From Eledone cirrhosa (Eukaryota), in contig OZ024754.1 of NCBI GenBank assembly GCA_964016885.1, positions 23,498,001 through 23,562,000 of the forward strand: DNA of 64,000 nucleotides, read 5' to 3'. Below the pieces are notes generated by a model. That model worked only from the letters and a program-made list of their open reading frames with translations, ran no database searches and had not been told where the DNA came from. This document shows, one piece after another, positions 618 through 59,861 of this stretch (positions within the stretch are counted from its first letter, which is position 1; each line of letters starts with the position of its first letter). Made by a program: the position numbers and the translations under genes.

Positions 618-912
618 TTCCTGTGTCAGTGTTGAACAAAAAGGTGACGTGGTTGCCTAAACACTGTACGGCGTAATTCGGGTTGTTTGTTTGTATTCAA
701 ACAAAAAAACCGAGCATTATAATAAATGTTCGGTAAACCGATACGTGCATATATATATGTGTGTGCATGTATGTATATATATACATACTACAGTACGTCT
801 GTATACATATATGTTTGTACGTATACATACATACATACTTACATTTAAGTAGGTGCCGTACTAAGAGTGAGAAATGAAATTTCGTTTCATTCTATTCACT
901 TTATCGTTTATG

Positions 913-991
<79 letters not shown>

Positions 992-1011
992 ATATATATA
1001 TATATATATGT

Positions 1012-1110
1012 ATGTATATATGTATATATAGTGTATTTTGCAATACACTGTCTGCTTAATTAAAAGCAGTTCGAAGACCTTATGCTATTGTTTTAGAGTA
1101 GTGACAGACT
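1012..1110 (-). repeat. Inverted partial satellite monomer at the array 5' edge
   Basis: Reverse complement of ~1136-1230 (agtctgtcactactctaaaacaatagcataaggtcttcg...aatacactatatatacat). Confidence 0.9.
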
Positions 1111-4100
1111 GTTTGCTGAAAATTAAAGTAAGTGAGTCTGTCACTACTCTAAAACAATAGCATAAGGTCTTCGAAATGCTTTTACTTAAGCATACAGTGT
1201 ATTGCAAAATACACTATATATACATTCATATATATATAGCTATTTCAGAGCACCAATTCTAATTTTCAATTTCTGCTTGACCGGCAACCGCTCTGTATAA
1301 TCAGTTCCTGATTATTTACTAGAATTCTATAAGAACCAAACATCCATGATTTCAGCAAACAGGAGGAGTAGTTGGCTTTGATAAGCATCAATAAATGCGA
1401 AACAAGGCCTTGTCAGCTTTATCTCGCCCTGTTTGCTGAAAATTCAAGTAAGTGAATCTGTCACTACTCTAAAACAAGAGCACAAGGTTTTCGAAATGCT
1501 TTTAATTAAGAATACAGTGTATTGCAAAATACACTATATATACATTCATATATATATATATATTTCAGAGCACCAATTCTAATTTTCAATTTCTGCTTGA
1601 CCGGCAACCGCTCTGTATAATCAGTTCCTGATTATTTACTAGAATTCTATAAGAACCAAACATCCATGATTTCAGCAAACAGGAGGAGTAGTTGGCTTTG
1701 ATAAGCATCAATAAATGCGAAACAAGGCCTTGTCAGCTTTATCTCGCCCTGTTTGCTGAAAATTCAAGTAAGTGAGTCTGTCACTACTCTAAAACAATAG
1801 CATAAGGTTTTCGAAATGCTTTTAATTAAGAATACAGTGTATTGCAAAATACACTATATATACATTCATATATATATATATATTTCAGAGCACCAATTCT
1901 AATTTTCAATTTCTGCTTGACCGGCAACCGCTCTGTATAATCAGTTCCTGATTATTTACTAGAATTCTATAAGAACCAAACATCCATGATTTCAGCAAAC
2001 AGGAGGAGTAGTTGGCTTTGATAAGCATCAATAAATGCGAAACAAGGCCTTGTCAGCTTTATCTCGCCCTGTTTGCTGAAAATTCAAGTAAGTGTATCTG
2101 TCACTACTCTAAAACAATAGCACAAGGTTTTCGAAATGCTTTTAATTTAGAATACAGTGTATTGCAAAATACACTATATATACATTCATATATATATAGC
2201 TATTTCAGAGCACCAATTCTAATTTTCAATTTCTGCTTGACCGGCAACCGCTCTGTATAATCAGTTCCTGATTATTTACTAGAATTATATAAGAACCAAA
2301 CATCCATGATTTCAGCAAACAGGAGGAGTAGTTGGCTTTGATAAGCATCAATAAATGCGAAACAAGGCCTTGTCAGCTTTATCTCCCCCCTGTTTGCTGA
2401 AAATTAAAGTAAGTGAGTCTGTCACTACTCTAAAACAATAGCATAAGGTTTTCGAAATGCTTTTAATTAAGAATACAGTGTATTGCAAAATACACTATAT
2501 ATACATTCATATATATATAGCTATTTCAGAGCACCAATTCTAATTTTCAATTTCTGCTTGACCGGCAACCGCTCTGTATAATCAGTTCCTGATTATTTAC
2601 TAGAATTCTATAAGAACCAAACATCCATGATTTCAGCAAACAGGAGAAGTAGTTGGCTTTGATAAGCATCAATAAATGCGAAACAAGGCCTTGTCAGCTT
2701 TATCTCCCCCCTGTTTGCTGAAAATTAAAGTAAGTGAGTCTGTCACTACTCTAAAACAATAGCATAAGGTTTTCGAAATGCTTTTAATTAAGAATACAGT
2801 GTATTGCAAAATACACTATATATACATTCATATATATATATATATTTCAGAGCACCAATTCTAATTTTCAATTTCTGCTTGACCGGCAACCGCTCTGTAT
2901 AATCAGTTCCTGATTATTTACTAGAATTCTATAAGAACCAAACATCCATGATTTCAGCAAACAGGAGGAGTAGTTGGCTTTGATAAGCATCAATAAATGC
3001 GAAACAAGGCCTTGTCAGCTTTATCTCGCCCTGTTTGCTGAAAATTCAAGTAAGTGTATCTGTCACTACTCTAAAACAATAGCACAAGGTTTTCGAAATG
3101 CTTTTAATTAAGAATACAGTGTATTGCAAAATACACTATATATACATTCATATATATATAGCTATTTCAGAGCACCAATTCTAATTTTCAATTTCTGCTT
3201 GACCGGCAACCGCTCTGTATAATCAGTTCCTGATTATTTACTAGAATTATATAAGAACCAAACATCCATGATTTCAGCAAACAGGAGGAGTAGTTGGCTT
3301 TGATAAGCATCAATAAATGCGAAACAAGGCCTTGTCAGCTTTATCTCCCCCCTGTTTGCTGAAAATTAAAGTAAGTGAGTCTGTCACTACTCTAAAACAA
3401 TAGCATAAGGTTTTCGAAATGCTTTTAATTAAGAATACAGTGTATTGCAAAATACACTATATATACATTCATATATATATAGCTATTTCAGAGCACCAAT
3501 TCTAATTTTCAATTTCTGCTTGACCGGCAACCGCTCTGTATAATCAGTTCCTGATTATTTACTAGAATTCTATAAGAACCAAACATCCATGATTTCAGCA
3601 AACAGGAGAAGTAGTTGGCTTTGATAAGCATCAATAAATGCGAAACAAGGCCTTGTCAGCTTTATCTCCCCCCTGTTTGCTGAAAATTAAAGTAAGTGAG
3701 TCTGTCACTACTCTAAAACAATAGCATAAGGTTTTCGAAATGCTTTTAATTAAGAATACAGTGTATTGCAAAATACACTATATATACATTCATATATATA
3801 TATATATTTCAGAGCACCAATTCTAATTTTCAATTTCTGCTTGACCGGCAACCGCTCTGTATAATCAGTTCCTGATTATTTACTAGAATTCTATAAGAAC
3901 CAAACATCCATGATTTCAGCAAACAGGAGGAGTAGTTGGCTTTGATAAGCATCAATAAATGCGAAACAAGGCCTTGTCAGCTTTATCTCGCCCTGTTTGC
4001 TGAAAATTCAAGTAAGTGTATCTTTCACTACTCTAAAACAATAGCACAAGGTTTTCGAAATGCTTTTAATTAAGAATACAGTGTATTGCAAAATACACTA

Positions 4101-7100
4101 TATATACATTCATATATATATAGCTATTTCAGAGCACCAATTCTAATTTTCAATTTCTGCTTGACCGGCAACCGCTCTGTATAATCAGTTCCTGATCATT
4201 TACTAGAATTCTATAAGAACCAAACATCCATGATTTCAGCAAACAGGAGGAGTAGTTGGCTTTGATAAGCATAAATAAATGCGAAACAAGGCCTTGTCAG
4301 CTTTATCTCGCCCTGTTTGCTGAAAATTCAAGTAAGTGAGTCTGTCACTACTCTAAAACAATAGCATAAGGTTTTCGAAATGCTTTTAATTAAGAATACA
4401 GTGTATTGCAAAATACACTATATATACATTCATATATATATATATATTTCAGAGCACCAATTCTAATTTTCAATTTCTGCTTGACCGGCAACCGTTCTGT
4501 ATAATCAGTTCCTGATTATTTACTAGAATTCTATAAGAACCAAACATCCATGATTTCAGCAAACAGGAGGAGTAGTTGGCTTTGATAAGCATCAATAAAT
4601 GCGAAACAAGGCCTTGTCAGCTTTATCTCGCCCTGTTTGCTGAAAATTCAAGTAAGTGTATCTGTCACTACTCTAAAACAATAGCACAAGGTTTTCGAAA
4701 TGCTTTTAATTAAGAATACAGTGTATTGCAAAATACACTATATATACATTCATATATATATATATATTTCAGAGCACCAATTCTAATTTTCAATTTCTGC
4801 TTGACCGGCAACCGCTCTGTATAATCAGTTCCTGATTATTTACTAGAATTCTATAAGAACCAAACATCCATGATTTCAGCAAACAGGAGGAGTAGTTGGC
4901 TTTGATAAGCATCAATAAATGCGAAACAAGGCCTTGTCAGCTTTATCTCGCCCTGTTTGCTGAAAATTCAAGTAAGTGTATCTGTCACTACTCTAAAACA
5001 ATAGCACAAGGTTTTCGAAATGCTTTTAATTAAGAATACAGTGTATTGCAAAATACACTATATATACATTCATATATATATAGCTATTTCAGAGCACCAA
5101 TTCTAATTTTCAATTTCTGCTTGACCGGCAACCGCTCTGTATAATCAGTTCCTGATTATTTACTAGAATTATATAAGAACCAAACATCCATGATTTCAGC
5201 AAACAGGAGGAGTAGTTGGCTTTGATAAGCATCAATAAATGCGAAACAAGGCCTTGTCAGCTTTATCTCCCCCCTGTTTGCTGAAAATTAAAGTAAGTGA
5301 GTCTGTCACTACTCTAAAACAATAGCATAAGGTTTTCGAAATGCTTTTAATTAAGAATACAGTGTATTGCAAAATACACTATATATACATTCATATATAT
5401 ATAGCTATTTCAGAGCACCAATTCTAATTTTCAATTTCTGCTTGACCGGCAACCGCTCTGTATAATCAGTTCCTGATTATTTACTAGAATTCTATAAGAA
5501 CCAAATATCCATGATTTCAGCAAACAGGAGGAGTAGTTGGCTTTGATAAGCATCAATAAATGCGAAACAAGGCCTTGTCAGCTTTATCTCCTCCCTGTTT
5601 GCTGAAAATTAAAGTAAGTGAGTCTGTCACTACTCTAAAACAATAGCATAAGGTTTTCGAAATGCTTTTAATTAAGAATACAGTGTATTGCAAAATACAC
5701 TATATATACATTCATATATATATATATATTTCAGAGCACCAATTCTAATTTTCAATTTCTGCTTGACCGGCAACCGCTCTGTATAATCAGTTCCTGATTA
5801 TTTACTAGAATTCTATAAGAACCAAATATCCATGATTTCAGCAAACAGGAGGAGTAGTTGGCTTTGATAAGCATCAATAAATGCGAAACAAGGCCTTGTC
5901 AGCTTTATCTCCTCCCTGTTTGCTGAAAATTAAAGTAAGTGAGTCTGTCACTACTCTAAAACAATAGCATAAGGTTTTCGAAATGCTTTTAATTAAGAAT
6001 ACAGTGTATTGCAAAATACACTATATATACATTCATATATATATAGCTATTTCAGAGCACCAATTCTAATTTTCAATTTCTGCTTGACCGGCAACCGCTC
6101 TGTATAATCAGTTCCTGATTATTTACTAGAATTCTATAAGAACCAAACATCCATGATTTCAGCAAACAGGAGAAGTAGTTGGCTTTGATAAGCATCAATA
6201 AATGCGAAACAAGGCCTTGTCAGCTTTATCTCCCCCCTGTTTGCTGAAAATTAAAGTAAGTGAGTCTGTCACTACTCTAAAACAATAGCATAAGGTTTTC
6301 GAAATGCTTTTAATTAAGAATACAGTGTATTGCAAAATACACTATATATACATTCATATATATATATATATTTCAGAGCACCAATTCTAATTTTCAATTT
6401 CTGCTTGACCGGCAACCGCTCTGTATAATCAGTTCCTGATTATTTACTAGAATTCTATAAGAACCAAACATCCATGATTTCAGCAAACAGGAGGAGTAGT
6501 TGGCTTTGATAAGCATCAATAAATGCGAAACAAGGCCTTGTCAGCTTTATCTCGCCCTGTTTGCTGAAAATTCAAGTAAGTGTATCTTTCACTACTCTAA
6601 AACAATAGCACAAGGTTTTCGAAATGCTTTTAATTAAGAATACAGTGTATTGCAAAATACACTATATATACATTCATATATATATATATATTTCAGAGCA
6701 CCAATTCTAATTTTCAATTTCTGCTTGACCGGCAACCGCTCTGTATAATCAGTTCCTGATTATTTACTAGAATTCTATAAGAACCAAACATCCATGATTT
6801 CAGCAAACAGGAGGAGTAGTTGGCTTTGATAAGCATCAATAAATGCGAAACAAGGCCTTGTCAGCTTTATCTCGCCCTGTTTGCTGAAAATTCAAGTAAG
6901 TGTATCTGTCACTACTCTAAAACAATAGCACAAGGTTTTCGAAATGCTTTTAATTAAGAATACAGTGTATTGCAAAATACACTATATATACATTCATATA
7001 TATATAGCTATTTCAGAGCACCAATTCTAATTTTCAATTTCTGCTTGACCGGCAACCGCTCTGTATAATCAGTTCCTGATTATTTACTAGAATTATATAA

Positions 7101-10100
7101 GAACCAAACATCCATGATTTCAGCAAACAGGAGGAGTAGTTGGCTTTGATAAGCATCAATAAATGCGAAACAAGGCCTTGTCAGCTTTATCTCCCCCCTG
7201 TTTGCTGAAAATTAAAGTAAGTGAGTCTGTCACTACTCTAAAACAATAGCATAAGGTTTTCGAAATGCTTTTAATTAAGAATACAGTGTATTGCAAAATA
7301 CACTATATATACATTCATATATATATAGCTATTTCAGAGCACCAATTCTAATTTTCAATTTCTGCTTGACCGGCAACCGCTCTGTATAATCAGTTCCTGA
7401 TTATTTACTAGAATTCTATAAGAACCAAACATCCATGATTTCAGCAAACAGGAGAAGTAGTTGGCTTTGATAAGCATCAATAAATGCGAAACAAGGCCTT
7501 GTCAGCTTTATCTCCCCCCTGTTTGCTGAAAATTAAAGTAAGTGAGTCTGTCACTACTCTAAAACAATAGCATAAGGTTTTCGAAATGCTTTTAATTAAG
7601 AATACAGTGTATTGCAAAATACACTATATATACATTCATATATATATATATATTTCAGAGCACCAATTCTAATTTTCAATTTCTGCTTGACCGGCAACCG
7701 CTCTGTATAATCAGTTCCTGATTATTTACTAGAATTCTATAAGAACCAAACATCCATGATTTCAGCAAACAGGAGGAGTAGTTGGCTTTGATAAGCATCA
7801 ATAAATGCGAAACAAGGCCTTGTCAGCTTTATCTCGCCCTGTTTGCTGAAAATTCAAGTAAGTGTATCTTTCACTACTCTAAAACAATAGCACAAGGTTT
7901 TCGAAATGCTTTTAATTAAGAATACAGTGTATTGCAAAATACACTATATATACATTCATATATATATAGCTATTTCAGAGCACCAATTCTAATTTTCAAT
8001 TTCTGCTTGACCGGCAACCGCTCTGTATAATCAGTTCCTGATCATTTACTAGAATTCTATAAGAACCAAACATCCATGATTTCAGCAAACAGGAGGAGTA
8101 GTTGGCTTTGATAAGCATAAATAAATGCGAAACAAGGCCTTGTCAGCTTTATCTCGCCCTGTTTGCTGAAAATTCAAGTAAGTGAGTCTGTCACTACTCT
8201 AAAACAATAGCATAAGGTTTTCGAAATGCTTTTAATTAAGAATACAGTGTATTGCAAAATACACTATATATACATTCATATATATATATATATTTCAGAG
8301 CACCAATTCTAATTTTCAATTTCTGCTTGACCGGCAACCGTTCTGTATAATCAGTTCCTGATTATTTACTAGAATTCTATAAGAACCAAACATCCATGAT
8401 TTCAGCAAACAGGAGGAGTAGTTGGCTTTGATAAGCATCAATAAATGCGAAACAAGGCCTTGTCAGCTTTATCTCGCCCTGTTTGCTGAAAATTCAAGTA
8501 AGTGTATCTGTCACTACTCTAAAACAATAGCACAAGGTTTTCGAAATGCTTTTAATTAAGAATACAGTGTATTGCAAAATACACTATATATACATTCATA
8601 TATATATATATATTTCAGAGCACCAATTCTAATTTTCAATTTCTGCTTGACCGGCAACCGCTCTGTATAATCAGTTCCTGATTATTTACTAGAATTCTAT
8701 AAGAACCAAACATCCATGATTTCAGCAAACAGGAGGAGTAGTTGGCTTTGATAAGCATCAATAAATGCGAAACAAGGCCTTGTCAGCTTTATCTCGCCCT
8801 GTTTGCTGAAAATTCAAGTAAGTGTATCTGTCACTACTCTAAAACAATAGCACAAGGTTTTCGAAATGCTTTTAATTAAGAATACAGTGTATTGCAAAAT
8901 ACACTATATATACATTCATATATATATAGCTATTTCAGAGCACCAATTCTAATTTTCAATTTCTGCTTGACCGGCAACCGCTCTGTATAATCAGTTCCTG
9001 ATTATTTACTAGAATTATATAAGAACCAAACATCCATGATTTCAGCAAACAGGAGGAGTAGTTGGCTTTGATAAGCATCAATAAATGCGAAACAAGGCCT
9101 TGTCAGCTTTATCTCCCCCCTGTTTGCTGAAAATTAAAGTAAGTGAGTCTGTCACTACTCTAAAACAATAGCATAAGGTTTTCGAAATGCTTTTAATTAA
9201 GAATACAGTGTATTGCAAAATACACTATATATACATTCATATATATATAGCTATTTCAGAGCACCAATTCTAATTTTCAATTTCTGCTTGACCGGCAACC
9301 GCTCTGTATAATCAGTTCCTGATTATTTACTAGAATTCTATAAGAACCAAATATCCATGATTTCAGCAAACAGGAGGAGTAGTTGGCTTTGATAAGCATC
9401 AATAAATGCGAAACAAGGCCTTGTCAGCTTTATCTCCTCCCTGTTTGCTGAAAATTCAAGTAAGTGAGTCTGTCACTACTCTAAAACAATAGCATAAGGT
9501 TTTCGAAATGCTTTTAATTAAGAATACAGTGTATTGCAAAATACACTATATATACATTCATATATATATATATATTTCAGAGCACCAATTCTAATTTTCA
9601 ATTTCTGCTTGACCGGCAACCGCTCTGTATAATCAGTTCCTGATTATTTACTAGAATTCTATAAGAACCAAATATCCATGATTTCAGCAAACAGGAGGAG
9701 TAGTTGGCTTTGATAAGCATCAATAAATGCGAAACAAGGCCTTGTCAGCTTTATCTCCTCCCTGTTTGCTGAAAATTAAAGTAAGTGAGTCTGTCACTAC
9801 TCTAAAACAATAGCATAAGGTTTTCGAAATGCTTTTAATTAAGAATACAGTGTATTGCAAAATACACTATATATACATTCATATATATATAGCTATTTCA
9901 GAGCACCAATTCTAATTTTCAATTTCTGCTTGACCGGCAACCGCTCTGTATAATCAGCTTCTGATTATTTACTAGAATTCTATAAGAACCAAACATCCGT
10001 GATTTCAGCAAACAGGAGGAGTAGTTGGCTTTGATAAGCATCAATAAATGCGAAACAAGGCCTTGTCATCTTTATCTCGCCCTGTTTGCTGAAAATTAAA

Positions 10101-10232
10101 GTAAGTGAATCTGTCACTACTCTAAAACAATAGCAAAAGGTCTTCGAAATGCTTTTAATTAAGCATACAATGTATTGCAAAATACACTATATATACATTC
10201 ATATATATATAACTATTTCAGAACACCAATTC

Positions 10233-10238
<6 letters not shown>
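1111..10238 (+). repeat. Tandem satellite of ~28.5 near-identical 320/321-bp monomers, each with a hammerhead ribozyme motif (retrozyme-like)
   Basis: The motif ggctttgataagcat recurs at 1374, 1694, 2014, 2334, 2655 ... 9706, 10027 (28 copies). Only a few diagnostic substitutions and one 1-nt indel differ between units. Confidence 0.97.
1374..1418 (+). ncRNA. Type I hammerhead ribozyme with U3:A8 core (first of 28 copies; last at 10027-10071)
   Basis: GGCT-TTGATAA-GCAT caataa ATGC-GAAA-CAAGGCCTTG-TC-AGCT. Predicted cleavage after GUC at 1414. Stem I is extended by TTTCAGCAAACAGG (1350-1363) pairing with CCTGTTTGCTGAAA (1428-1441). Confidence 0.85.
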
Positions 10239-10282
<44 letters not shown>

Positions 10283-10284
<2 letters not shown>

Positions 10285-10534
10285 TACACGGGTGTGTATG
10301 ATTGTCTATAGAAGATTATATTAATAAAAGGAATTCCAACTGTCAGTTGAAAATTGCAAACTTGACTGTCACCACACATTATGAACCTGAAGATTGCGAA
10401 AGCATGAAAGTACTTGTTCAATTAACACTTAACATTTAATATTCTACCATACTATTTCATTCTAATACCATTATAAATTTTAAATGATGGTAAATAAAAC
10501 GAGTAAATCAGACAAAGTTGGAATTCCTTTTATT

Positions 10535-10540
<6 letters not shown>
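10283..10540 (+). mobile_element. Solo pseudo-LTR fragment of the Neptune-like PLE, with short inverted end
   Basis: Matches 26326-26556 and 37135-37566. The end of the 10283-10340 segment is inverted relative to 10517-10540. Confidence 0.75.
10382..10420 (+). ncRNA. Minimal type I hammerhead ribozyme (GTAC family)
   Basis: TGAAC-CTGAAGA-tTGC gaaa GCAt-GAAA-GTAC-TT-GTTCA. Confidence 0.8.
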
Positions 10541-11509: not shown

Positions 11510-13470
<1,961 letters not shown>

Positions 13471-17625: not shown

Positions 17626-18845
17626 ATGACTACTGACCAGCAAGCCCACAACGGACAAAATTGGTCTGAAAATGAAATTGACCTCTTAATAAACACATGG
17701 TTTTCTCTGTCCCAAACAACAAACATTAAGGCCTCATGTCTGAATGAATTGCTGAAAAAACAGCTCAGACACTTACCACGAGGTCTGCTAAGCAGATACA
17801 CAACAAACTAAAACATGTAGAAGTCTCTTTCAAACCAATTCAAAACCATTTTGAAAAGCTTCGACATATTTACTCCAATGGACAAACACAACAACAGCAA
17901 CAACAACAACAACAGCCACAACAGCAACAACAGCCAGAAAATCAGGAGCATAATAGCTGAATTATTGAATGACAGTATCCCTCAGCCACTCACTCAGCCG
18001 TCATTATCGCCATCACCATCACCACCGTCACCATCTTTTTCCACATCAACATCTTCTTCCACATGGACCACTGCTCTCTCTCCCACCACAGTTGTCATCA
18101 TCATCATCACAACTACTGCTTTCTTCCCCCACATCGCCACCACAGCCATGCCATAGTCAAAAGAACTTTAAAAAATAAATTAATGGAGCTGTATGCACCC
18201 GCCACTACACATACTAGAAACCCCAAAATATGCCGCTACTCACTACGTCAGAGGCTATGCACACGTAGCGACTGTATATTTACCCATTTACCGGGTACTA
18301 GGCGTACTAACACTGCCAGCCAACACCAAAGCACGCTGCCCGCATGTATAGGTCGCAGTCCCAAAATCTGCCAACATTCCCAACGTGAGAAGCTATGTCT
18401 GCTGACTGACTGTCCCTTCACTCATCTTCCTGGGACACAACGCACGAAGAGAAAAGGGTCTCCATGCCAACCCATAAACCACAATAAAGCCACCCCCTGC
18501 TGCAGTAATGCTTCTCCAGTCTCCTCACAAAGACATGATTACAACAACAAAAACAACAAAAGCAATGCTGCTCCAGTCTTTTCACAAAGACACGATTACA
18601 ACAACAACAAATACAACAAAAACAAAAATGCCGCTACTCCAGTCTTTTCACAAAGACGCAATTACAACAAATACAACAACAACAACAAAAGAGGGAACTG
18701 CAACCCTATCCAATGGTGTAACCACAAATCCAATCAAAAGCTGCTCCCTGAACAAAAGAATTTTTCTTTTTTAGCCATGAACCTGGCAAAAGAGATAGAG
18801 AAAAACATTTTAGCCATCACCCAACGCCATCCTTGCTGTCACTAA
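17626..18845 (+). pseudogene. Disrupted LINE ORF1 (CCCH-like zinc fingers, Asn-rich repeats)
   Basis: CRYSLRQRLCTRSDCIFTH and CQHSQREKLCLLTDCPFTH (C-x8-C-x4-C-x3-H) in ORF 18063-18845, directly upstream of the APE remnant. Confidence 0.65.
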
Positions 18846-23265: not shown

Positions 23266-24725
23266 CTAACAGCTAGGTCTAAAGTTATGGAAAGAGTGAC
23301 AGTATCGGTATTGGCATGAGGAAAATGTCTCCGACTTTTTATTAAGGAGTTCTGGTTTCGAAAAGATTATAGTATGGGTCTCTAGAAGGCAGAGATTACA
23401 CAATTTATTCGGTGGTTTATACGATGAGGCCCTACCTACTACTTGCCATTGCAGTGTAAATGGTCTATTCTTAGTTTTCAGAGAGTGTATGTGGCTAGAT
23501 AAAGAAGTGGAGTTGGCTAGATTGTGTTTCTTGAAAGAGTGGAGGTGCGAGTTGTATCTCGTCTTGAAGCTGTTCCAAGTAGAGCCGATATATGTTTTAG
23601 AAGAGTTGTTTGCGTTGACGTTGCATGGGTAGATGATGTCTTTGGTTAAGCAATTATTACCTAAGGGGAAAGTTCTATTAGTTCTACAGTTACATTTATT
23701 CTGGGTGTTAGCTTGCCGGTTCCTATGTTGTGAAGAATTCTGGTTGCTAGGGATAGCACTAGGGTAATGATGTCTATCATTCGTATTGTTATTGATTTCA
23801 TTAGTGCTATTATCATTATTACCATTATTACTACTATTGTTTACAGGCACTAAGTTTACCTCCTGCTCTGTGTTTTAATTAGTTGGACATTATTATTAAT
23901 CTTCCTTTTATTACTACCAGCTATATGGTATGCTAGTTAGGTGTGGTGGAGTACGATATTTTAATTGTATTTTTATTAATAAGGTTATGGTACTTGTGGC
24001 CGATCGGGAAGTTTTTTTCTAAGATTGAGAAGAAAGCTTTAGGCAAGTTTGTAGAGACGTTTAGATTGAAAGGGGGATTGAAGAATATATTAGTTCTTCT
24101 GTTTTTGTTTTTAGTACTGTTTATATTATTATTGTGGTGTTTACTTTGGTGTGAGTTAAGTTTGGTATTATATTTCATCTTCGTCTTAGAGTTATAGTGG
24201 CTAGTACTTTTATTATTTTTCCTCATGACCATATTATGAGAAATAATGTTGTAACTATGTGATTTTATAGGTAGGAATTCAATCTCATTCTTATGTCCTG
24301 ATTTAGCTAAGGCCCCATTAGAGTATTGTGAATTATTGTTAAATATGGTTTCATTATATGATAGATTAGAGATTCTATTAGATATTCCTTTAGTAATAGA
24401 GTTTAATATGGATTTAGGGTGGTTAGATTTGGTGTTCACATAAATTAGTTTTTCGTTAGGTTTATGATAGGGTGTGTATATTCTAGAGTCTAGGCTAAGG
24501 GTAGCATCAAAGAAGTTGACGTTTTTAGTGTGTTTATCTAAGGTGATACTTAAGTTGAAGTTTTTGAAAATTTTGTGTAACTGTTTCCTAGTTTTTCCTA
24601 TATTAAATTTTTTATAGTCAATAAGGAGAAGCGCATCATCGCGGTATAAACCACCGTTGAGGTAGGTTAGGTTCTTATGAATTTCATTAAGTAGGTATAG
24701 GCCAACCAAATCGGTGACCTGGAAT
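23266..24725 (-). pseudogene. PLE RT (C-terminal part) + GIY-YIG, interrupted
   Basis: ORFs 23933-24775 and 23266-23850. The first ~17 codons of the former come from the inverted pseudo-LTR. Confidence 0.9.
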
Positions 24726-24949
24726 ATTGGAATATTCTCTTGTATTATATGTATTATCTGTTGCATGTGTTCCACTCTGTGCTTTTAATTTGAATTTGAA
24801 TTTGAATTTTTGTACAATTATCGTAAAATATATGTCACATCCATTCCACCCTGTAAATAAGAAACTGTTGCTCACAACATCAATATATATGTATCTATGG
24901 TATTGTTCAGTTGAATAGGAGGTTAATTACATGTACAAACATTGATAAT

Positions 24950-26479: not shown

Positions 26480-26518
26480 TGAACAAGTACTTTCATGCTT
26501 TCGCAATCTTCAGGTTCA
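26480..26518 (-). ncRNA. Minimal hammerhead (GTAC family), sense to the Neptune-like ORF
   Basis: Same sequence as 10382-10420 on the opposite strand. Confidence 0.8.
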
Positions 26519-26900: not shown

Positions 26901-29286
26901 CTAGTATTGTTCATTTAGCTTGGGTTTGAATTTATCAATAAAATTCTTTTCTTTGATTTTTCTCTTGATTTCACTTGGGCTGTGTAATTTGTAGAATGGG
27001 AATATTATAAATATTCCCTGACCACATATTGCTAGATGGTTACTTAGGGGTATCTGACGGACATTTGGGTCTCTGATTTGCTGACGGTGTACCCGTGCAC
27101 GTTCCGATAGTACATTTCCAATTTGACCGACATATAGTTCTTCACAATTTGGGCATTTAATGCAGTAAATTATATTTCTGCTTTTGCAGTTCATATTTGC
27201 ATATGGGAATATTTTTCCAGTTTTTGTTTTCATATATTGACCGGCGTGTATGGATTGACATGTGCCGCATCGACTATCATTGTATTTAGATACAGTGAAT
27301 GATTGGTCTTTGTTGTTCAGGTCAAACTTTGCTTTTGTTAGTAATTGCTTCAAATTTTTCGGCTGTCTTTTACTAAGAGTCAAAGATCGATCTGTGATTA
27401 AGCCTTTTAATTCATTACTTTGAGCAATGATCGGTAGGTTTGCTTTGGCAGTGTTGAAGATATTCTGGTGACATGGGTTGTGTGTCATTATAAATGGTAT
27501 GACCAGTTCTTGGTTTCTTCTTCCTTGGGTTGTCCTAAGTTGTTGTATAGGTATTTTTATAGCCCGCTGTATGCCATTTTCTATAAGTAGAGATGGGTAT
27601 TTTTGTTTGAGCAAAAATTCTCTTAGTTCTGTTAGGCGTTTGTGCCTGGTATTCGTATCTTCTACAATGGTACAAATTCTTCTGGCTAGGCAGTATGGGA
27701 TGTTGCGTTTTGTATGAGGTGGATGGCACGACTTAAAATTCAGATATTGATGGGTGTCTGTGTGTTTATAATATATATCCGTGGTAATGGTGGTGTCGTT
27801 TTTGATTATCATTATATCTAGGAATGGTGGATTGGCAGTATCGGTAGAGAGTCGGACGCCATGCTTTCCAGCATAGTTACATCCCTTTACGATCTGAGTT
27901 CAAATCCCGCCGGGGTTGACTTTGCCTTTCATCCTTACGGGGTCGATAAAATAAAGTACCAGTAATGCACTGGGTAATTGCTGGCCTTGTGCCTAAAGTA
28001 GAAACAATTATATCTAGGAATGGTAATTTGGTCCTACTCATCTCTTTTGTGAATTGGAGAGATGGGTGTAGGTTATTCAGGAGGATATTGAACTCATCCA
28101 GAGTATCTAGAGATTCTGTCCAGATGATGAAACAGTCGTCAAGGTATCTCTTCCAAGATTTTTCAATGTACTTTCTAAAGTCAGTACTATATTTTTCCTC
28201 TATTTCTTGGTAGAGTTGTTGTTCTAAGTATCCCATTACAGAGTTCGCGTAAACGGGAGCAAATTTCGTTCCCATCGCTGTGCCTCTAATTTGGATGTAA
28301 TTCTTTCCATTGAAGAAGAAAGTGTTGTTTTCCAGAATAAGTTTAACTGCGTCTAATATAAATGGCGCTGTGAATCTGATGTGAATCACTTCTCTATGTT
28401 TTTCCACCCAGTATTTAACCGCCTTTATTCCTAAATCATGTGTAATGTTGGTGTAAAGGCTTACCACATCAAAACTAAGTAGAAGTGAATTCGTTTCCGT
28501 GGTTTTGGGAAGATGGGACAGGAAGTCAATATCATCCCGGATGAAACTGGATATGTGAATACATAGTGGTTTCAAAATAATATCAACAAAATTGCTTAGA
28601 CGGTGAGTGGGGCATGTTGGACCAGCTATAATAGGTCTAAGTTTTAAGTCTTTTGGGTGTAGTAATTTAATGTACTCACTGTTTTGTTCTCTTACTGCCA
28701 GTTGTATTTCTTTTGACTTATGAACTTTCGGTAGGCCATACAGGTTGCTAGGTTTTGGTTCAAAATTGGTGATGTAGTCTCTTTCCTTATCAGTAAGTGA
28801 GTTGTGGTATTTTGAAGCCAGGTTGTTGATCTTCTTCATGATGTTGTGGTCTATATTTGACGGTATTTCATGATAGAATGTTGTGTCTTTCAGTTGCTCC
28901 TCAACTAAATCCTTGTAGTATTCAGCATCCATTATAACAACTGCACCCCCTTTATCTGCTTGTTTAATTATTATTGTTTTATCATTTTGTATACGTTTAA
29001 GTGCAGACATTTCTGATTTGTTAATGTTTGGCCTAACATTAGTGTTACGTCTAAGAGGAAATTTAGACAGGATGTCAATGTATTGGTCGAGATAGATATT
29101 TCTTCCTTTTGGCGGAGTGAAATTTGATTTATTCTTTACTAGTGATTCATCACTCTCATTACTTTTATCAGCGAAGAATTCTACAAGACGTAATTTTCGA
29201 CAGAATTCTTGGGTATCCTCCTTCAGTTCTTGGTTGTTGACTGTTGGAGTCGGTGTGAATTTCAGTCCTTTTGACAAAATTTGCAT
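26901..29286 (-). pseudogene. PLE RT + GIY-YIG ORF split only by a SINE insertion
   Basis: Removing the SINE plus one TSD copy joins ...KLPFLDI to MIIKNDTT... in frame. Confidence 0.9.
27829..28006 (+). mobile_element. tRNA-derived SINE with 18-bp TSD
   Basis: A-box-like TGGCAGTATCGG, B-box GAGTTCAAATCC. TSD attatatctaggaatggt at 27811-27828 and 28007-28024. Confidence 0.92.
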
Positions 29287-29661
29287 TTCATTATTGTCAA
29301 GATCTCTTTTGGATAAATTAATTATTGTAGGATCTACGTGTACAGTTGTTTTGGGTATGTTTCCTCCTGGAGTTTTTCTTTTTCCAGTTTTTGTTGTCCT
29401 GACGTAAAAAAATGGATTTTTCTCTGTTCAGATTCATATTCCTGTTGGTGTCCGCTTGATGAACTTTTGGTCGTGATATTATATTTGGTTTCGTTATGTA
29501 TTTTGTCCTATTTTTGATATTATGTAAGTTAGATTACAGATATAAAAGACAGCGAGAAGCGAAAACCAACCAAACCAAACAGTGAGTGTGTTCTGTTATT
29601 AATTCTGGCAATATTACACAAATATGACCCTCCACAAGTATAACAATAAATATATATATAT

Positions 29662-30567: not shown

Positions 30568-31080
30568 TTGAATAGAATGAAACGAAATTTCATTTCTCAC
30601 TCTTAGTACGGCACTTGCTTAAATGTAAGTATGTATGTATACGTACATACATATATGTATACAGACGTACAGTAGTATAGATATATATATATACCTACAT
30701 GCACACATATATATATGCAGGTATCGGTTTACCGAACATTTATTATAATGCTCGGTTTGTTTGTTTGTAAACAAACAAACAGCCCGAATTACGCCGTACA
30801 GTATTTAGGCAAACCACGTCACCTTTTTGTTCAACACTGACACAGGAACGATGTACTAGTTTCAAGCGTATTAGCTATCGTCAGCATCGTATACCTTCCT
30901 GCCAGATGGTTGAACGTCTGAAAGTATATACTTTCCTTATGCATATTAACGGCTGAGCAGCCTAATTTGCATATCCAGTGAGTCCATTCGGCCGGGCACA
31001 CTGAAAACGATAAATGGAATAGAATGAAACGAAATTTCATTTCTCACTCTTAGTACGGCACTTACTTAAATGTAAGTATG
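30568..31080 (-). mobile_element. Partial-tandem pseudo-LTR homologous to 240-905
   Basis: gaatagaatgaaacgaaatttc...aatgtaagtatg occurs at both 30570 and 31017. The body matches the window start. Confidence 0.75.
30849..30889 (-). ncRNA. Minimal hammerhead (CTAG family), intact
   Basis: Reverse complement of 577-617. Confidence 0.8.
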
Positions 31081-40197: not shown

Positions 40198-42810
40198 CTA
40201 ACAGCTAGGTTTAAAGTTGTGGAACGAATGTCGGTACCGGTGTTGGCACGAGGAAAATGTCTCTGACTTTCTATTAGGGAGGTCTAGTTTCGAAAAGATT
40301 ATAGTATGGGTCTCCTGAAGGCAGAGATTACACAATTTATTCGGTGGATTATACGATGAGGCCCTACCTACTACTTCCCATTGCAGTGTAAATGGTCTAT
40401 TCCTAGTTTTCAGAGAGTGTATGTAGCTAGATAAAGAAGTGGAGCTGGCTAGATTGTGTTTTTTTGAAAGAGTGGAGGTGCGAGTTGTATCTCGTCTTGA
40501 AGTTGTTCGAAGTAGAACCTATATATGTTTTAGATTTGTTTGCGTTGACGGTGCATGAGTAGATGATGTCTTTGGTTAAGCAATTATTACCTAAGGGGCA
40601 AGTTCTATTAGTTCTACAGTTACATTTATTTTGGGTGTTAGCTTTCCGGTTCCTATGTTGTGAAGAATTCTGGTTGCTAGGGGTAGCACTAGGGTAATGG
40701 TGTCTATCATTCGTATTGTAATTGATTTCATTAGTGCTATTATCATTATTACTATTATTACTACTATTGTTTACAGGTACCAAGTTTACCTCCTGTTGTG
40801 TTTTAATTAGTTGGAAATAGTTATTAATTTTCCTTTTATTACTACTAGCTATATGGTATGCTATGTGGTGGAGTACGATATTTTAATTGTATTTTTATTG
40901 ATAAGGCTATGGTACTTGTGGCCGATCGGGAAGTTTTTTTCTAAGATTGAGAAGAAAGCCTTAGGCAAGTTGGTAGAGAAGTTTAGATTTAAAGGGGGAT
41001 TGAAGAATGTATTAGTTCTCCTATTTTTGTTTATAGTATTGTTTTTTTAGGTATTTATATCCCTGTTTATATTATCGTGGTGTTTACTTTGCTGCGAGTT
41101 AAGTTTGGTATTAATCTTCGTCCTAGTGTTATAGTAGTTAGTGTTTTTACTATTTTTCCTCATGGCCATATTATGAGAAATAATGTTGTAACTATGTGAT
41201 TTTATAGGTAGGAATTCAATCTCATTCTTATGTCCTGATTTAGCTAAGGCCTCATTATAATATTGTGAATTATTGTTAAATAAGGTTTCATGATATGATC
41301 GATTAGAGATTCTATTAGATATTCCTTTGGTAATAGAGTTTAATATGGATTTAGGGTGGTTACAGTTGGTGTTCACATAAATTAGGTTTTCGTTAGGTTT
41401 ATGATAGGGTGTGTATATTCTAGAGTCTAGGCTAAGGGTAGCATCAAGGAAGTTGACGTTTTTAGTGTTTTTATCTTAAGTTGAAGTTTTTGAAAATTTT
41501 GTGTAACTGTTTCCTAGTTTTTTCTATATTAAATTTGTTATAGTCTATAAAGAGAAGGAAGCACATCATCGCGGTATAAACACCGTTGAGGTAGGGTAGG
41601 TTCTTATGGATTTCATTAAGTAGGCATAGGCCAACCAAATCGGTGACCTGCGCCGAGTCTCTAGATACCATGGTTATGTCGAAGTTGTTATGCGTATTCT
41701 TGCGGGTCCATAATTGTTCTTCAAATGTAATTATGGTTTTTCGGGCCGCAAGTATGACGTCAATTTGGGATCTAGTCAGGTCACTATTGTTCATGGCCAT
41801 AATTAGAGCCTTATTTAATAGGATAGGGGAAATAAGGGTGTAGTATGAATTGATATCAAATTGTATAATTTTTTTTATTTTTACACTCTTTAATAACCTT
41901 GAACCATTCAATAACCTCACCCGGATTTCCCCATTGTTTAAGGTATATTTTGTGCTTAAATTGTGGGATGATTTTATCTAATATTTTCTTGCAGATAATA
42001 CCAATGTCAGACTTGGAAGGGCAAATCAGTTTAATTGAAGGGTTACTAATTAAGTCTTCTTTACGGTCCTTCAGAGAGAATCTTGGGGGATTAGGGGTGT
42101 ATGGCTGTGTATGTCTCTGAAGTCCTAATTTACTCACTATATTACGGCTTTCAATATTTATATCTTCTAGGTTTTTAGTAGTAGTTTTCTTGTAGCTCCT
42201 ATGCAGTTCCTTATATATAAATTTCCTATAAGTATCGTAATCTAAGCTATATAGATTGGCAGTATCAGTAGAGGGTCGGACGCCATGTTTTCCAGCATAG
42301 TTACGTCCCTTTACGATCTGAGTTCAAATCCCGCCGAGGTTGACTTTGCCATTCATCCTTACGGGGGTCGATAAAATAAAGTACCAGTAATGCACTGGGT
42401 AATTGCTGGCCTTGTGCCTAAAGTATAAACAATTATTAGTTTTATCTGCATGCAGTAGGATTTTTTTTTAATTAAATCCTTTAATAGTGGAGTTAAGGTA
42501 GTTTCATTAGGCGTTGTTTCTATTATGATGTTTTTTGTATTTTATGATCTTAACTAGTTTAATTAGATCATTTTCAAAGGAGTTTAACAATGTGTTGTGA
42601 GGAGGGCTTTTAAATGTTTTAAAGCCGTAATTGTCGAAGTTATTCGTATCCCTGTTTTTGTCTGAACGGTTTCTATCGTAATGGAATGTCCTCCATCTCA
42701 CTCTATTGGTGGAAGAGTTGACACTATTGATCAATAATTTTTCAAATGTATCTTTAGGTGGTATTGGTATGTTCTTAGTAGATATAGGAAGGTGATCTTT
42801 GATAAGAATA
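40198..42810 (-). pseudogene. Multiply frameshifted PLE RT + GIY-YIG ORF
   Basis: ORF track pieces 42507-42734, 41856-42137, 41471-41920, 41047-41376 and 40427-40783 are collinear with the 44039 protein. Confidence 0.9.
42253..42434 (+). mobile_element. tRNA-derived SINE inserted in the family A ORF
   Basis: Close match to 27829-28006. Only a short ATT overlap at the junctions. Confidence 0.9.
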
Positions 42811-43966: not shown

Positions 43967-45856
43967 TTACCCAGACACAACCGATTCCTACAAAAACTCC
44001 GTAGCAACCTAACAGAGTATGATAACACAAATGACATCATGGTGCATTCGGATAAAACTGGGAACCTATACTTTGTCAACCCTGACAGATACCACACACT
44101 GATCAGGAGCAGCCTAAACTCCACCTATAAAAAGGCCAACCACTCTTGCATCGAGGACATAAATCGAGATGGACAACAAATCACCTCCAGCCTCGGGGTC
44201 GCCGACCGCACGGAACCTCTAGACCCACGGACACCATACTTCACACTGAAGGACCATAAATCCGATTTTGACCGTAAACCCTCTATCAGGCTTATTAACC
44301 CAACGAAGTCCGACATAGGGAGAATCAGCAAAAAAATCCTAGACCGCGTGATACCAAAAGTCAAGCAACACACCCGACTTAGCCTATGGATCAACACCCA
44401 GGAAGTAATCTCCTGGTTCAGCAATATGGAGGATAAACGAGAAACTAAATTCATACAGTTCGACATAGAGAGCTACTATGCTTCAATCACCTTACCGCTA
44501 CTTACTGCCGCCTTGGACTTCGCCGAAACACTTGTGCCCATCACCGACCAGGAAAGAAAAATCATCCTCCACGCCAGGAAGACAGTCTTACTCTTTGACG
44601 ACTCTAAATGGATAAAAAGAGCTCCCGACTCACCCTTCGACGTCAGCATGGGCGCCACGGATTCGGCGGAGGTCACAGATCTTATAGGATTATTCCTAAT
44701 AGCCAAACTCACTGATATGTTTCCTGCATTCGGTGGTGGATTGTACCGTGATGATGGGCTCCTTACCCTTAAAGGGTACAACCCCAGTAGTACAGATCGG
44801 GTCCGGAAACAATTAATCAGATTCTTCCGCGACTGGGGATTTAAATTAACCCTACAAACGTCCCTGACCAGAGTTAACTTCCTGGACCTCGAAAACGACC
44901 TATACTACCCATACAGGAAACCTAATGACAATCTGCACTACATCCACCGCCGATCAAACCATCCTAGGAACATCACAAACAACCTGGTCAAAAACATCTC
45001 CCTCCGCATATCCCGTTTGTCAGCTAATGAGCGGATATTCGATGAACATGCGCCTTATTACAACCAGGCCCTCAAGCGGAGTGGTTTCCGGGAGGAAATA
45101 TCCTACTGTCCAGCTCCCATTAGCGGAACCAGCAGGAGACACCGCCGCTCACGCAATGTAACATGGTTCAATCCTCCCCACAACGCAGAGGTGACAACTC
45201 CCATCGGGAAACTATTCTTTAGGCTCATTGAAAAACACTTCCCATTACAACACCGCTACCACAACATAATTAACAAAAATACCATCTAACTCTCTTACAG
45301 CACTACACCAAACTTCGCACAAAACATCGTCTCCTCTAACAACAAAAAACTCAACCCCGATGGCAGAAATAACCTAAATAGCAGTGGAGAACCGACCAGG
45401 AGGTGTAACTGCCCGGATAGATCTATTTGCCCACTCGACAATAGATGCAGAGACCGTAATGTGATCTACCAGTGCAACGTGAGGACGGATACCTCCAACA
45501 AAGCCTATATAGGACTTACCGCATGTGACTTCAAGACCCGGCTATACCAACATAGACATACCTTCCGAAACCCGGCCCGGCGTCACGCCACTACACTTTC
45601 GGGCCACATATGGGACCTCAAGGACAATAACATCACCTATGATCTCACTTGGAGATTACTGTCCAGAGCCAATTCTTACACGGGAGGACGCCGTCCGTGC
45701 AATTTATGCTCGGAGGAAACTTTACAAATGCTGTTTTCGACGGACCAACTCCTAAACAAGAAAGATGAACTGGTTACTGCATGTAAACATAGATTGCGTA
45801 GGACTTACCTCGCCCTCAAACCCCATAATGACCCGGGGGGGGGGGGGGTAGACTAG
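43967..45856 (+). pseudogene. PLE RT + GIY-YIG ORF with a single in-frame TAA (45287-45289)
   Basis: DKTGNLY, TLKDHK, FDIESYY, GLYRDD, CNC..CPL..C, VIY..YIG, CNLC. The stop replaces the Lys of NTIK(I/L)SYS seen in sister copies. ORFs 44039 and 45461 share a frame. Confidence 0.92.
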
Positions 45857-52417: not shown

Positions 52418-54145
52418 TCAAAAATTAAAACCTGTTTGTTTCCTGACTTTTTGCGAGGCTTGGAATGTAGACAAAGCTTTATGAAGGCAGTTTGAGAATA
52501 ATTCACTTTTTTTATTAATTAAGTTTTCATAATTAGTAATTATTAATAGGGTCTCCTTTGTACAGAGGTTGCAGTTAGTTGATATAGACGAATTCGAGTA
52601 GATTCTACTATTACAAAGCTTCGTCCAATCAAGTATTTTAAATTTTTGACCATATAATAATGACCATATAAGTTGTGATAAAGAAGTCGAAAACTTCCTA
52701 ATAGGATTCGAAAACGAGCATTTGTGATTCACAAATCTCGATTTAAATGTCGAAGAAGTTGCCCCTATGTAATTGTATGTGATGTTATTTGCTTTTACGG
52801 TGCGTTTATACACCACATTTTTATCCAGACAATTATTTTGCAGAGGGCAATCTGGTTTATTTCTACAATTACATTTCGATTTATTATTATTTATATTAAC
52901 ACTATTATTAACAATATTATGCTGATTTGGGTTTCGAATTCTACTATTTAGTTTAGCCATGTTTTGGGCCATATTCATAGTTGTAGAATAAGAAACCTTA
53001 ATTGTGTGTCCATTAAATATGGAACGGTATTTATGTTGACTAGGGAAGGAATTATCTAAAGCCTTAAATAATAGATTAGCTAGTGGTGTTTTTACTGCTA
53101 CAGAAGCAGGGGGGGGGGCAAACCATATAACTGATTTAGTTCTGTTTGTTTTCCCTGATATATTCACAGTACAGGTGTTTGAATTATAATTTTTAGAATA
53201 TCGTTTATACATACCAGTCATATTATTATTATTTTTATCAGGATTAAGATTCGAATTATTATTGTCTATATATTCTATATTATTTTTATAACCCGCCTTT
53301 CTTAGCGCATCATTGTAATGTCCTGCTTTTTCATCAAATATTGATTTATTAGCAGATATTCTAGTTGTGCGTTTCTGTACACTATTGACAATAGCATTTT
53401 TCACAGATTTAGGGTGATTAGAGTAATAACTAACATAATTTAAGTTTTCATTGGGCTTATGGAAAGGGTAATAAAAACCAGAGTTTAAGTTAAGGGTAGC
53501 ATCAAGGAAATTAACTATTTTGGTACCACTTTCAACCTCTAATTTAAAGGTCGTAATTTTTAAAGAATTCAATTATATTTTTCTTAACTCTATTTAGTTC
53601 TGTATTGCTGTGTTTGACAACTGTAAATAAAATATCGTCCCTATATAAACCACCGGTAATCTCCGGCAGTTTTCTATTTACCATATTTAAGATGAAAATC
53701 CCCAGAAGATCCGTGACTTGCGCTGAGTCCGATGATCCCATGGTAATGTCAAAGTTTTATTTCTATCTGAGCGGGTCCAATACTCATTGTTGAAATTAAT
53801 TAGAGTTCTTCTAGCAGTTAATATGATATCGATTTCATCCGCTGTTAGATCTGTATGTTTGTAAGCGTAGGATAAAGCCTTATTCAGTAGGTTAGGCGTA
53901 ATGGAAGAGTAATAGCTTATGTCAATTTGGATGGATTTATGGTTTTTCTTATCATCTATATTTTTATACCAATCAATCACTTCATTGGTGTCCTTCCACA
54001 AACTCAATTTAGACCTCAATTTCAAAATAGATAGAATTCTATCAATAATATTCTTACTGATTACTCCAATATCGGATTTAGATGGAGCAATCAGTCTAAC
54101 TGGCAGGTCTTCCTCAAAGCTTCTTTTGTGATCTTTAATTTTTAA
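52418..54145 (-). pseudogene. Naiad-like PLE family B RT + GIY-YIG, frameshifted, 5'-truncated at (TA)n
   Basis: KDHK, PSKSDIG, MGSSDSAQVTDL, GGLYRDD, CNCRNKPDCPL, VVY..YIG, CNLC. Confidence 0.9.
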
Positions 54146-54327
54146 ATATATATATATATATATATATTTTAGTAAGTAAGTTAATTTTTATAATTTTCTT
54201 ATTTTACGTCTTTCATATAATTGTTCTGCATCCCCTTGCATTGAACCACAAAGTTATTAAGACAAAACCTATATATTTGCTAGCATAGGTATGCATCTGT
54301 ATATATATGTTGGTAGATATATTAATT

Positions 54328-59300: not shown

Positions 59301-59377
59301 TGGTGACAAGGGGGGCGAGGAGGGAGTCGAGAAAGGCGGAGATGAGTTCGGTGGGGCAGTTGCAAGCGGAGACGATG

Positions 59378-59380
<3 letters not shown>
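56364..59380 (-). mobile_element. GC-rich, strongly strand-biased Neptune-like PLE, 5'-truncated, between (TA)n tracts
   Basis: Open RT + GIY-YIG frame, C/A-rich 1.4-kb 3' region. Partial HHR core CCGAAGA-a-GGGC ttat GCCC-GAAAC at 56453-56483. Confidence 0.92.
57838..59379 (-). CDS. PLE reverse transcriptase + GIY-YIG endonuclease (N-terminally truncated, uninterrupted frame)
   Basis: PIVS..CPTE, LDIKSLYT, GVAMGTRMGPNYANLF, RYIDD, CSRPRCNTC, LVY..C..C..YVGQT..R..EH, GLN. The frame stays open upstream of the annotated Met to the TA tract. Confidence 0.88.
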
Positions 59381-59433
<53 letters not shown>

Positions 59434-59861
59434 TATTCTTGGGGAGGGTCATATTGTTGTAATAATATTGCCAGAATTAATAACAGAACACACTCACTGT
59501 TTGGTTGGTTTTCGCTTCTGTATCTTTTATATCAGTTAATGTTTTCAGTCCTCAATGTTTACCATTGACTGACCAACGGTCAAAAATACGGATATAATAT
59601 AGACACAAACACATATATAGAGTCTAAAAAAGTTCTTTCGTTGCACATCTGCAACATCGTCAGTGGTGCTATTATGTTTCCTTCTGTTGTATTGTATGTC
59701 TACGCCATCTTCATTTAATCTGTTTATTTATTTATTTATTTATTATATATATTTATATATATTTATATATATTTATATATATATATATAAATATATATAC
59801 ATACGGATTGGACACTACCGTAAACTCTTGGTAGATTTATCTACATATATAAATATATATA

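Follow-up and report, generated by a model that had tools for sequence, protein, structure and literature searches.

Retrozymes that lack long terminal repeats (non-LTR retrozymes) are tandem repeats in which each unit carries a type I hammerhead ribozyme, and for their mobility Penelope-like elements (PLEs) are named as a strong candidate, with RNA circles as the likely template (PMC7229834). A 2026 preprint states that the mechanism remains to be worked out (10.64898/2026.07.22.740005). In this study, we analyzed a 64,000-nucleotide stretch of the Eledone cirrhosa genome (contig OZ024754.1 of assembly GCA_964016885.1, positions 23,498,001 to 23,562,000 of the forward strand; hereafter the window), which contains a tandem array of 320-bp units, each with a hammerhead whose 3:8 core pair is U3:A8. 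We consider it likely that this unit is a non-autonomous, non-coding non-LTR retrozyme, copied by PLE machinery from a circular template, and that the array later grew at the DNA level.

With the retrozymes of coral, mussel, and axolotl (PMC7229834), the unit shares a tandem arrangement of 150-450 bp units with one type I hammerhead each, a low GC content (below 50% there and 0.33-0.34 here), the lack of open reading frames (ORFs), a stable fold, and coexistence with PLEs; dimer-dependent cleavage is described there for axolotl and predicted here. The array is non-coding, as only three stop-to-stop frames (65-82 aa) lie wholly inside it and none of them recurs. In contrast to those retrozymes, U3:A8 is fixed here in most subfamilies, stem III is longer (a 12-nt palindrome), a PLE-type tail and inverted arms are present, and the monomer is predicted to block itself, which the available text of that article calls unusual for animal retrozymes. 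Linear and circular monomer RNAs characterize those retrozymes and are a prediction for the unit.

PLEs themselves share with the unit the type I hammerhead, the palindromic stem III, the U3-A8 variant (in Schistosoma), (TA)n targets, an inverted 5ʹ-truncated arm, and a tail at one end (PMC4209133, 10.1101/2021.04.23.441226, PMC11167929). Unlike them, the unit forms a tandem of itself and does not flank an ORF, has full-size helices rather than a minimal ribozyme, and is not similar to the PLEs compared. It contains no ORF with a reverse transcriptase (RT) and a GIY-YIG endonuclease and is thus not an autonomous PLE.

Vertebrate retrozymes likewise occur genome-wide as monomers, dimers, and multimers, with a proposed dependence on PLEs and possible growth by unequal crossover (10.64898/2026.07.22.740005). 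The available part of that study is based on co-occurrence and sequence similarity with canonical or minimal descriptors, and its invertebrates are three insects and one anthozoan, with no mollusc; here, the insertion ends were analyzed. Newt satellite 2 and Schistosoma SM-alpha are also satellite tandems of ~330 bp with one hammerhead per unit (PMC7229834, PMC6765202), a likeness drawn from their description only; dimer cleavage is known for newt satellite 2 and predicted for the unit. In contrast to these satellites, no polymerase III box was matched in the unit with simple motifs.

The U3:A8 pair has been reported before. It occurs in several natural hammerheads, and such variants are said to be active in vitro (PMC3088659); about 1,300 minimal U3-A8 hammerheads, mostly single, are reported in Schistosoma PLEs (PMC4209133). 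Both U3:A8 and tandem-hammerhead retrozymes are already in print, and the core swap alone is ordinary. No paper on the unit's family or on cephalopod retrozymes was found by a search that lay outside most subscription papers, and supplements might list some. The value of the family is its insertion anatomy, which would tie an animal retrozyme to Penelope-type reverse transcription, probably from a circular template, and makes the question of how such elements move testable.

Insertion anatomy of the dispersed copies

The unit is dispersed through the 3.0-Gb assembly, where counts of exact patterns are lower bounds. A first look gave 1,827 candidates, and a 23-mer over the hairpin at 1516-1535 had 3,324 exact matches; copies occurred as monomers, dimers, and multimers. 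The core type of the window was matched 457 times (including the 28 units here and a few single-letter variants) and other U3:A8 types 1,322 times, amounting to at least 1,779 U3:A8 matches next to at least 365 of the unit's C3:G8 type, while the reversed core patterns gave 0 matches genome-wide in each search. Other copies that preserve the pairing are therefore abundant, and with the tandem non-coding units they bear out the earlier note's description of a retrozyme-like element. Its point that canonical-core searches miss the swap was also confirmed with the patterns used, and such searches overlook most of the unit's family.

Insertion ends were scored in 64 distinct loci of one contig (C1), taken from the first 100 listed 23-mer matches with 6 duplicate loci and 3 late matches excluded; unit position 1 was defined as the base right after the cleavage site. 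Among the 111 segment ends, 49 fell at unit positions 165-178 (tail), 50 at 130-155 (short), and 12 elsewhere. Nearly all tails (46/49) ran straight into (TA)n, and 28 of the 37 inverted pairs combined one tailed with one short end. PLE insertions are described as having an inverted 5ʹ-truncated arm, a tail of 30-40 bp at one end, and microsatellite targets (10.1101/2021.04.23.441226), and their two-arm structure is explained by internal initiation of reverse transcription at two RNA sites (PMC11167929). The shape of the retrozyme insertions points to copying by Penelope-type retrotransposons. The insertions define two start points of reverse transcription, which would lie in the internal TA tract and tail, and an adjoining conserved block, a candidate binding site for the PLE protein (Table 1).

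Arms with a regular 3ʹ end crossed the cleavage site in 71 of 99 cases, indicating that a linear monomer left by cleavage did not serve as the template. What lay upstream of a unit was another unit, not an ORF, and no common body emerged among 59 non-inverted 5ʹ flanks, where the six listed pairs were short, further retrozyme sequence, or one duplicated locus. Within loci, 18 of 33 unit pairs had a rare letter in common (mean 1.0, compared to 0.28 for the nearest units elsewhere; the pairs are non-independent), which points to a single template for each insertion. The template was probably a circular RNA.

A young sister family gave the clearest pattern of this kind. Its 310-bp unit is colinear with the 320-bp unit, 75% identical over positions 71-216, and has a canonical C3:G8 core with a minimal palindromic stem III. 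The core pattern had 10,116 matches genome-wide, from which all 14 clusters among the first 100 matches were taken, together with the discovery locus. Twelve of these 15 loci were two-armed, with arms of 0.6-10.1 units each, and all 12 had one short and one long end. Each of the 10 insertions with at least two scored units carried one haplotype; five haplotypes were found among the 10, 5 of 79 units deviated by 1-2 letters, and there were no mosaics. To become fixed throughout both arms, a variant must have gone through one unit, as it would with a circular monomer template. This uniformity, which is expected of rolling-circle reverse transcription, is a strong but indirect sign of a circular template; the transcript of a uniform array would mimic it for one generation. 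The sister family is the better substrate for mechanistic work.

Very young, inverted two-armed arrays of the sister family, with up to ~18 units, were seen at L218:1-590, at L236-L248, and genome-wide. A contig of sequencing run X4 (another organism by its code) also contains sister-family sequence.

Constraint on the hammerhead and a predicted switch

As the earlier note had read from each monomer, 28/28 units had stems II and III and an intact type I hammerhead core carrying U3:A8, with C17 at 1414 and recurring each 320-321 bases through 10067. The nucleotides that define this core (3-9, 12-14, A15.1-U16.1, and H17, with a Watson-Crick 3:8 pair) were all in place. The motif had also been described as identical in all units, which is right for the core and for stems II and III; a loop II letter is altered in 2 of the 28 units, and in the last unit a G of the 3ʹ strand of stem I has become U. 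The internal loop in stem I and the 6-nt loop II were both present, and the outer 14-bp helix and two further hairpins claimed for the unit were located (Table 1). The fold of the monomer had a z-score of -5.1 (0/100 shuffles equally stable) and that of the 101-nt ribozyme region -5.8 (0/200). The best model of the Rfam hammerhead families (clan CL00010), Hammerhead_HH9, scored 19.4-23.4 bits in the 9 listed places, far below its gathering score of 52, so the element escapes the standard library.

Covariation was assessed in 141 ribozyme regions (134 distinct), namely that of the window and 140 of 147 from loci L028-L150; the 7 left out were partial, antisense, or badly aligned. Paired letters filled 93.7% of the alignment cells, compared to 33-47% with slid partners. 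Among the distinct copies, the 3:8 pair changed on both sides (UA 121, CG 5, unpaired 6), as did two pairs of stem II (CG 71/UA 52 and CG 66/UA 50) and two of stem III (GC 74/AU 34 and AU 78/GC 34), and the core letters were conserved at 91-99%. Four of these double changes were also seen in a contig of sequencing run X5 (run kind unstated). The two-sided changes at the 3:8 pair and at four stem pairs show that the fold persisted as the subfamilies diverged, and this comparison of copies indicates that the hammerhead, with its three helices and open stem I, is under structural constraint.

A 66-row tree, built from all 31 C3:G8 rows and a random draw of 35 of the 89 U3:A8 rows that excluded old arrays, had a single switch of the core type, with support of 100/98. 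The most divergent copy (L162) and the more distant sister family are both C3:G8, so U3:A8 is probably the derived state. It probably replaced C3:G8 once, after which the lineage would have kept spreading through several subfamilies, all of which retain the stem III palindrome. Divergence was 1.9% in the youngest subfamily and 4.6-4.8% in older ones; these age estimates are biased because 23 loci had been picked for likeness to the window.

Four loci (L156, L160, L101, and L146) were intermediates, with a C3:G8 core and a U3:A8-type stem III loop or with a U3:A8 core on a backbone near the C3:G8 subfamily. Two older arrays of the family, L108 and L120 (~17 and ~13 units), had ~7% divergence between units and many damaged cores. 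At L086:908-1510, a 163-bp sub-unit covering unit positions 56-220 is repeated in tandem; it lacks the ribozyme and keeps the tail region.

The earlier note had missed the minimum-energy fold of a single monomer. This was a competing helix, here called the off helix, instead of the hammerhead, which was 7.0 kcal/mol worse, likewise in the circle. For two-unit RNA, the minimum-energy fold was a double hammerhead formed through the paired 12-nt palindromes of neighboring units (pair probabilities 0.78-0.99), which was 15.6 kcal/mol better than two single hammerheads; cleavage of dimers through the palindromic stem III, which had been suggested before, is thus borne out as a prediction. The off helix was pairable in 92% of alignment cells, and its advantage was 7.0 kcal/mol in the youngest subfamily, compared to 2.3-2.9 in the four next most common types. 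As its covariation amounts to about one event and partly follows from the resemblance of the palindrome to stem I, we treat it as a prediction. With such a switch, tandem RNA could cleave itself, and the circle would remain intact as a template for reverse transcription.

Proposed life cycle and its alternatives

Taken together, these observations suggest the following cycle. Read-through transcription of at least two units, for which no promoter was found, would give a tandem RNA. The palindromic stems III of adjacent units would pair into the predicted double hammerhead, and the RNA would be cut after C17, a step for which the conservation of the ribozyme argues. The monomer would then close into a circle, by ligation as in other retrozymes, and the off helix would silence the ribozyme. 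Next, a Penelope-like RT-endonuclease may nick both (TA)n strands, and reverse transcription would start inside the RNA at unit positions ~130-155 and 165-178, pass the cleavage junction, and go round the circle, the two cDNAs being joined at their 5ʹ-truncated ends. The outcome would be two inverted arms, one tailed and one untailed, which is the anatomy observed. At the array locus, an insertion of ~2-3 units would later have grown to 28.5 units by DNA duplication, in line with the pattern of variants described below.

In a more ambitious form, the genome would record the whole retrozyme life cycle, with a ribozyme active only in tandem RNA and silent in the circle, and a PLE RT that copies one circle from both (TA)n nicks, writing inverted arrays of up to ~18 units per step. 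We lean slightly towards this version. Within it, the subfamily series would amount to a natural experiment on swapping the catalytic 3:8 pair, accompanied by a stronger off helix. If true, this version would be direct evidence that rolling-circle retrotransposition of host circular RNA can give birth to satellite DNA.

A possible partner is suggested by a chimera at L064:860-1120, in which the 3ʹ part of a PLE directly abuts rearranged retrozyme sequence with no TA run. It names a PLE family, as a lead only. This family had 25,461 first-look candidates, with open frames of up to 1,257 aa, which we take to carry RT and C-terminal GIY-YIG-like motifs. Pfam gave nothing relevant for the 1,257-aa frame and sub-threshold RT and GIY-YIG matches in 3 of 9 window frames; the PLE labels rest on such sub-threshold matches, on tblastn, and on sequence motifs. 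Together with this frame as candidate enzyme, the retrozyme insertions offer a ready substrate for testing rolling-circle target-primed reverse transcription directly.

Several points weigh against the proposed cycle. The unit has no sequence similarity to the PLE pieces of the window or to three long PLE copies, which are a small part of the genome's PLEs, and the partner rests on one chimera among the 59 flanks examined. The strongest rolling-circle pattern comes from the sister family, not from the array's own. The copies form a subfamily ladder, so that the covariation represents about 5 independent double changes along one lineage, not 134. The double hammerhead is only 1.6 kcal/mol better than two off helices. 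In vitro, hammerhead mutants left insertion unaffected in one reconstituted PLE, from anole (PMC11167929), and 8 of 9 Xenopus retrozyme dimers remained uncleaved (10.64898/2026.07.22.740005). Further, the genome offers no clean footprint of cleavage, and in the sister family 5ʹ ends were not enriched at the cleavage site (5 matches, compared to 19 and 15 at control offsets).

For the unit's own family, 7 ends of the local sample lay at the cleavage site against 1.4 expected; one locus (L091) has a mutated stem III, which reduces this to 6 ends in 4 loci. Genome-wide, 9 loci had such ends, compared to 4 and 2 control matches. Six of the 9 were symmetric junctions on a 4-nt palindrome, and 2 symmetric junctions were found at another palindrome. 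We did not count the excess as a footprint of cleavage, as the 4-nt palindrome at the site can explain it.

The earlier note had assigned mobilization to the neighboring PLEs. PLE-like machinery agrees with the inverted pairs described above; the neighbors in particular were rejected as specific partners, given their lack of similarity to the unit. Shared (TA)n targeting explains why the array lies among PLEs.

The alternative that survives best, which we nevertheless regard as unlikely, is that a PLE copies a linear multimer that comes from a uniform array and stays uncleaved, the ribozyme serving another step such as 5ʹ trimming or RNA turnover and circles being by-products or absent. Arms would cross the cleavage site under either model, the lack of a footprint in the sister family fits, and the main in vitro substrate of the anole PLE is unprocessed RNA (PMC11167929). 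However, the five sister haplotypes are each fixed in their own insertions with 0 mosaics in 10, and fixation in both arms needs passage through a single unit; stems II and III were also rebuilt by double changes, and no subfamily lost the palindrome.

A far less probable possibility is that in the youngest subfamily the U3:A8 ribozyme has lost its activity or almost all of it, its fold being a relic and the element spreading by its PLE-binding end alone. The off helix is indeed strongest in this subfamily, and most predicted retrozyme dimers failed in vitro (10.64898/2026.07.22.740005). Against this, double changes in stems II and III became fixed after the core switch, en route to the youngest subfamily, the core letters remain highly conserved, and PMC3088659 describes U3:A8 as active in vitro. 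We give the least credence to the idea that the units are pseudo-LTR (pLTR) fragments of an unfound autonomous PLE, the dispersed copies being its 5ʹ-truncated insertions and no separate element: the ends, tail, and inversions are PLE-like and Xenopus retrozymes resemble pLTRs, with similarity to an autonomous PLE in 21 of 57 families and hence not universally (10.64898/2026.07.22.740005), but units are preceded by units instead of an ORF, the 59 flanks share no body, and the PLEs compared are dissimilar.

The array locus and its neighbors

Tandem Repeats Finder delimited the array at 1109-10239, with a period of 320, 28.5 copies, and 98% matches. The main arm begins 5ʹ-truncated at unit position 15 and stops at unit position 172. 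Its extent had been recognized before, and the inverted arm of 107 bp beside it had been missed; this second arm of the array's insertion has no tail and runs out in (TA)n. The element of the array thus has a short left end and a tailed right end, both of which meet (TA)n (Table 1).

The variants indicate that the length of 28 units reflects expansion at the DNA level and is no sign of an RNA process. Two substitutions are common to 27 of the 28 units and present in ~3% of the dispersed copies of the subfamily; they are missing from the last unit, the first partial unit, and the inverted arm. Variants within the array form nested sets, and identity at lag 12 was found for 8 of 15 units, compared to 0-3 at other lags. 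These end-sparing substitutions, the nesting, and the lag of 12 suggest growth of a short insertion through unequal exchange or slippage; the 12-unit duplication may in part be an artefact of the assembly.

Table 1. Features of the array, its unit, and a candidate PLE frame (window positions unless another locus is given)
Feature	Position	Strand	Remarks
Main arm	1109..10239	+	28.5 head-to-tail units, each 320-321 bp
Inverted 5ʹ-truncated arm, 107 bp	~1002..1108	-	Unit positions 43 to ~149
(TA)n microsatellite, left end	909..1030	.	Target site; fuses with the unit's own TA tract
(TA)n microsatellite, right end	10239..10264	.	Target site
Hairpin, 8-bp stem	1297..1315	+	
Outer helix, 14 bp	1350..1441	+	1350-1363 pairs with 1428-1441; closes the ribozyme domain
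Type I hammerhead, unit 1	1374..1418	+	Stem I 1374-1377 with 1415-1418; C17 1414, predicted cleavage site
Core, unit 1	U3 1378 to A9 1384 (A8 1383)	+	Stem II 1385-1398; G12-A14 1399-1401
Stem III	1402..1413	+	Perfect 12-nt palindrome; self-duplex -19.5 kcal/mol
Competing off helix, 7 bp (predicted)	1374..1409	+	1374-1380 with 1403-1409; would bury U3, U4, and G5 in monomer and circle
Hairpin, 8-bp stem	1516..1535	+	Directly 5ʹ of the short insertion end
Internal TA tract and tail	1536..1586	+	Short 3ʹ end, unit positions 130-155; long 3ʹ end, 165-178
Block best conserved with the sister family	1561..1630	+	Unit positions 147-216; spans the long end
Last hammerhead	10027..10071	+	Core intact; one stem I pair lost
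PLE-like stop-to-stop frame, 1,257 aa	L217, C3:199330300-199338500		Long Asn/Thr/His-rich N-terminal part; 3ʹ region with a canonical hammerhead

PLEs and (TA)n abound in the window. For one PLE protein of the window, the closest named relative is labeled Octopus vulgaris (57% identical), and the PLE pieces carry their own canonical minimal hammerheads, unrelated to that of the unit. An inverted pLTR-like repeat at 290-900 has canonical minimal hammerheads at 582 (+) and 382 (-), with a further copy at 30884 (-). A second pLTR-like repeat with a minimal hammerhead adjoins the right end of the array (10284-10540) and recurs at 26513 (-) and 37285 (-); the copy at 10284-10540 has an inverted tailed arm, and the repeat's sequence also occurs 3ʹ of the PLE frame at 26901-29427 (-).

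Elsewhere in the window, a 290-aa stop-to-stop frame at 17973-18845 (+) has two Cys/His repeats and a 66-bp tandem, with no Pfam match. Broken PLE-like frames of various families lie at 12594-13133, 23266-24784, 40427-42323, 43967-45856, 52418-54187, and 57838-59448. The PLE RT-GIY-YIG gene at 26901-29427 (-) is broken near 27850-28000 by a short, very common repeat, which recurs in many of the loci examined.

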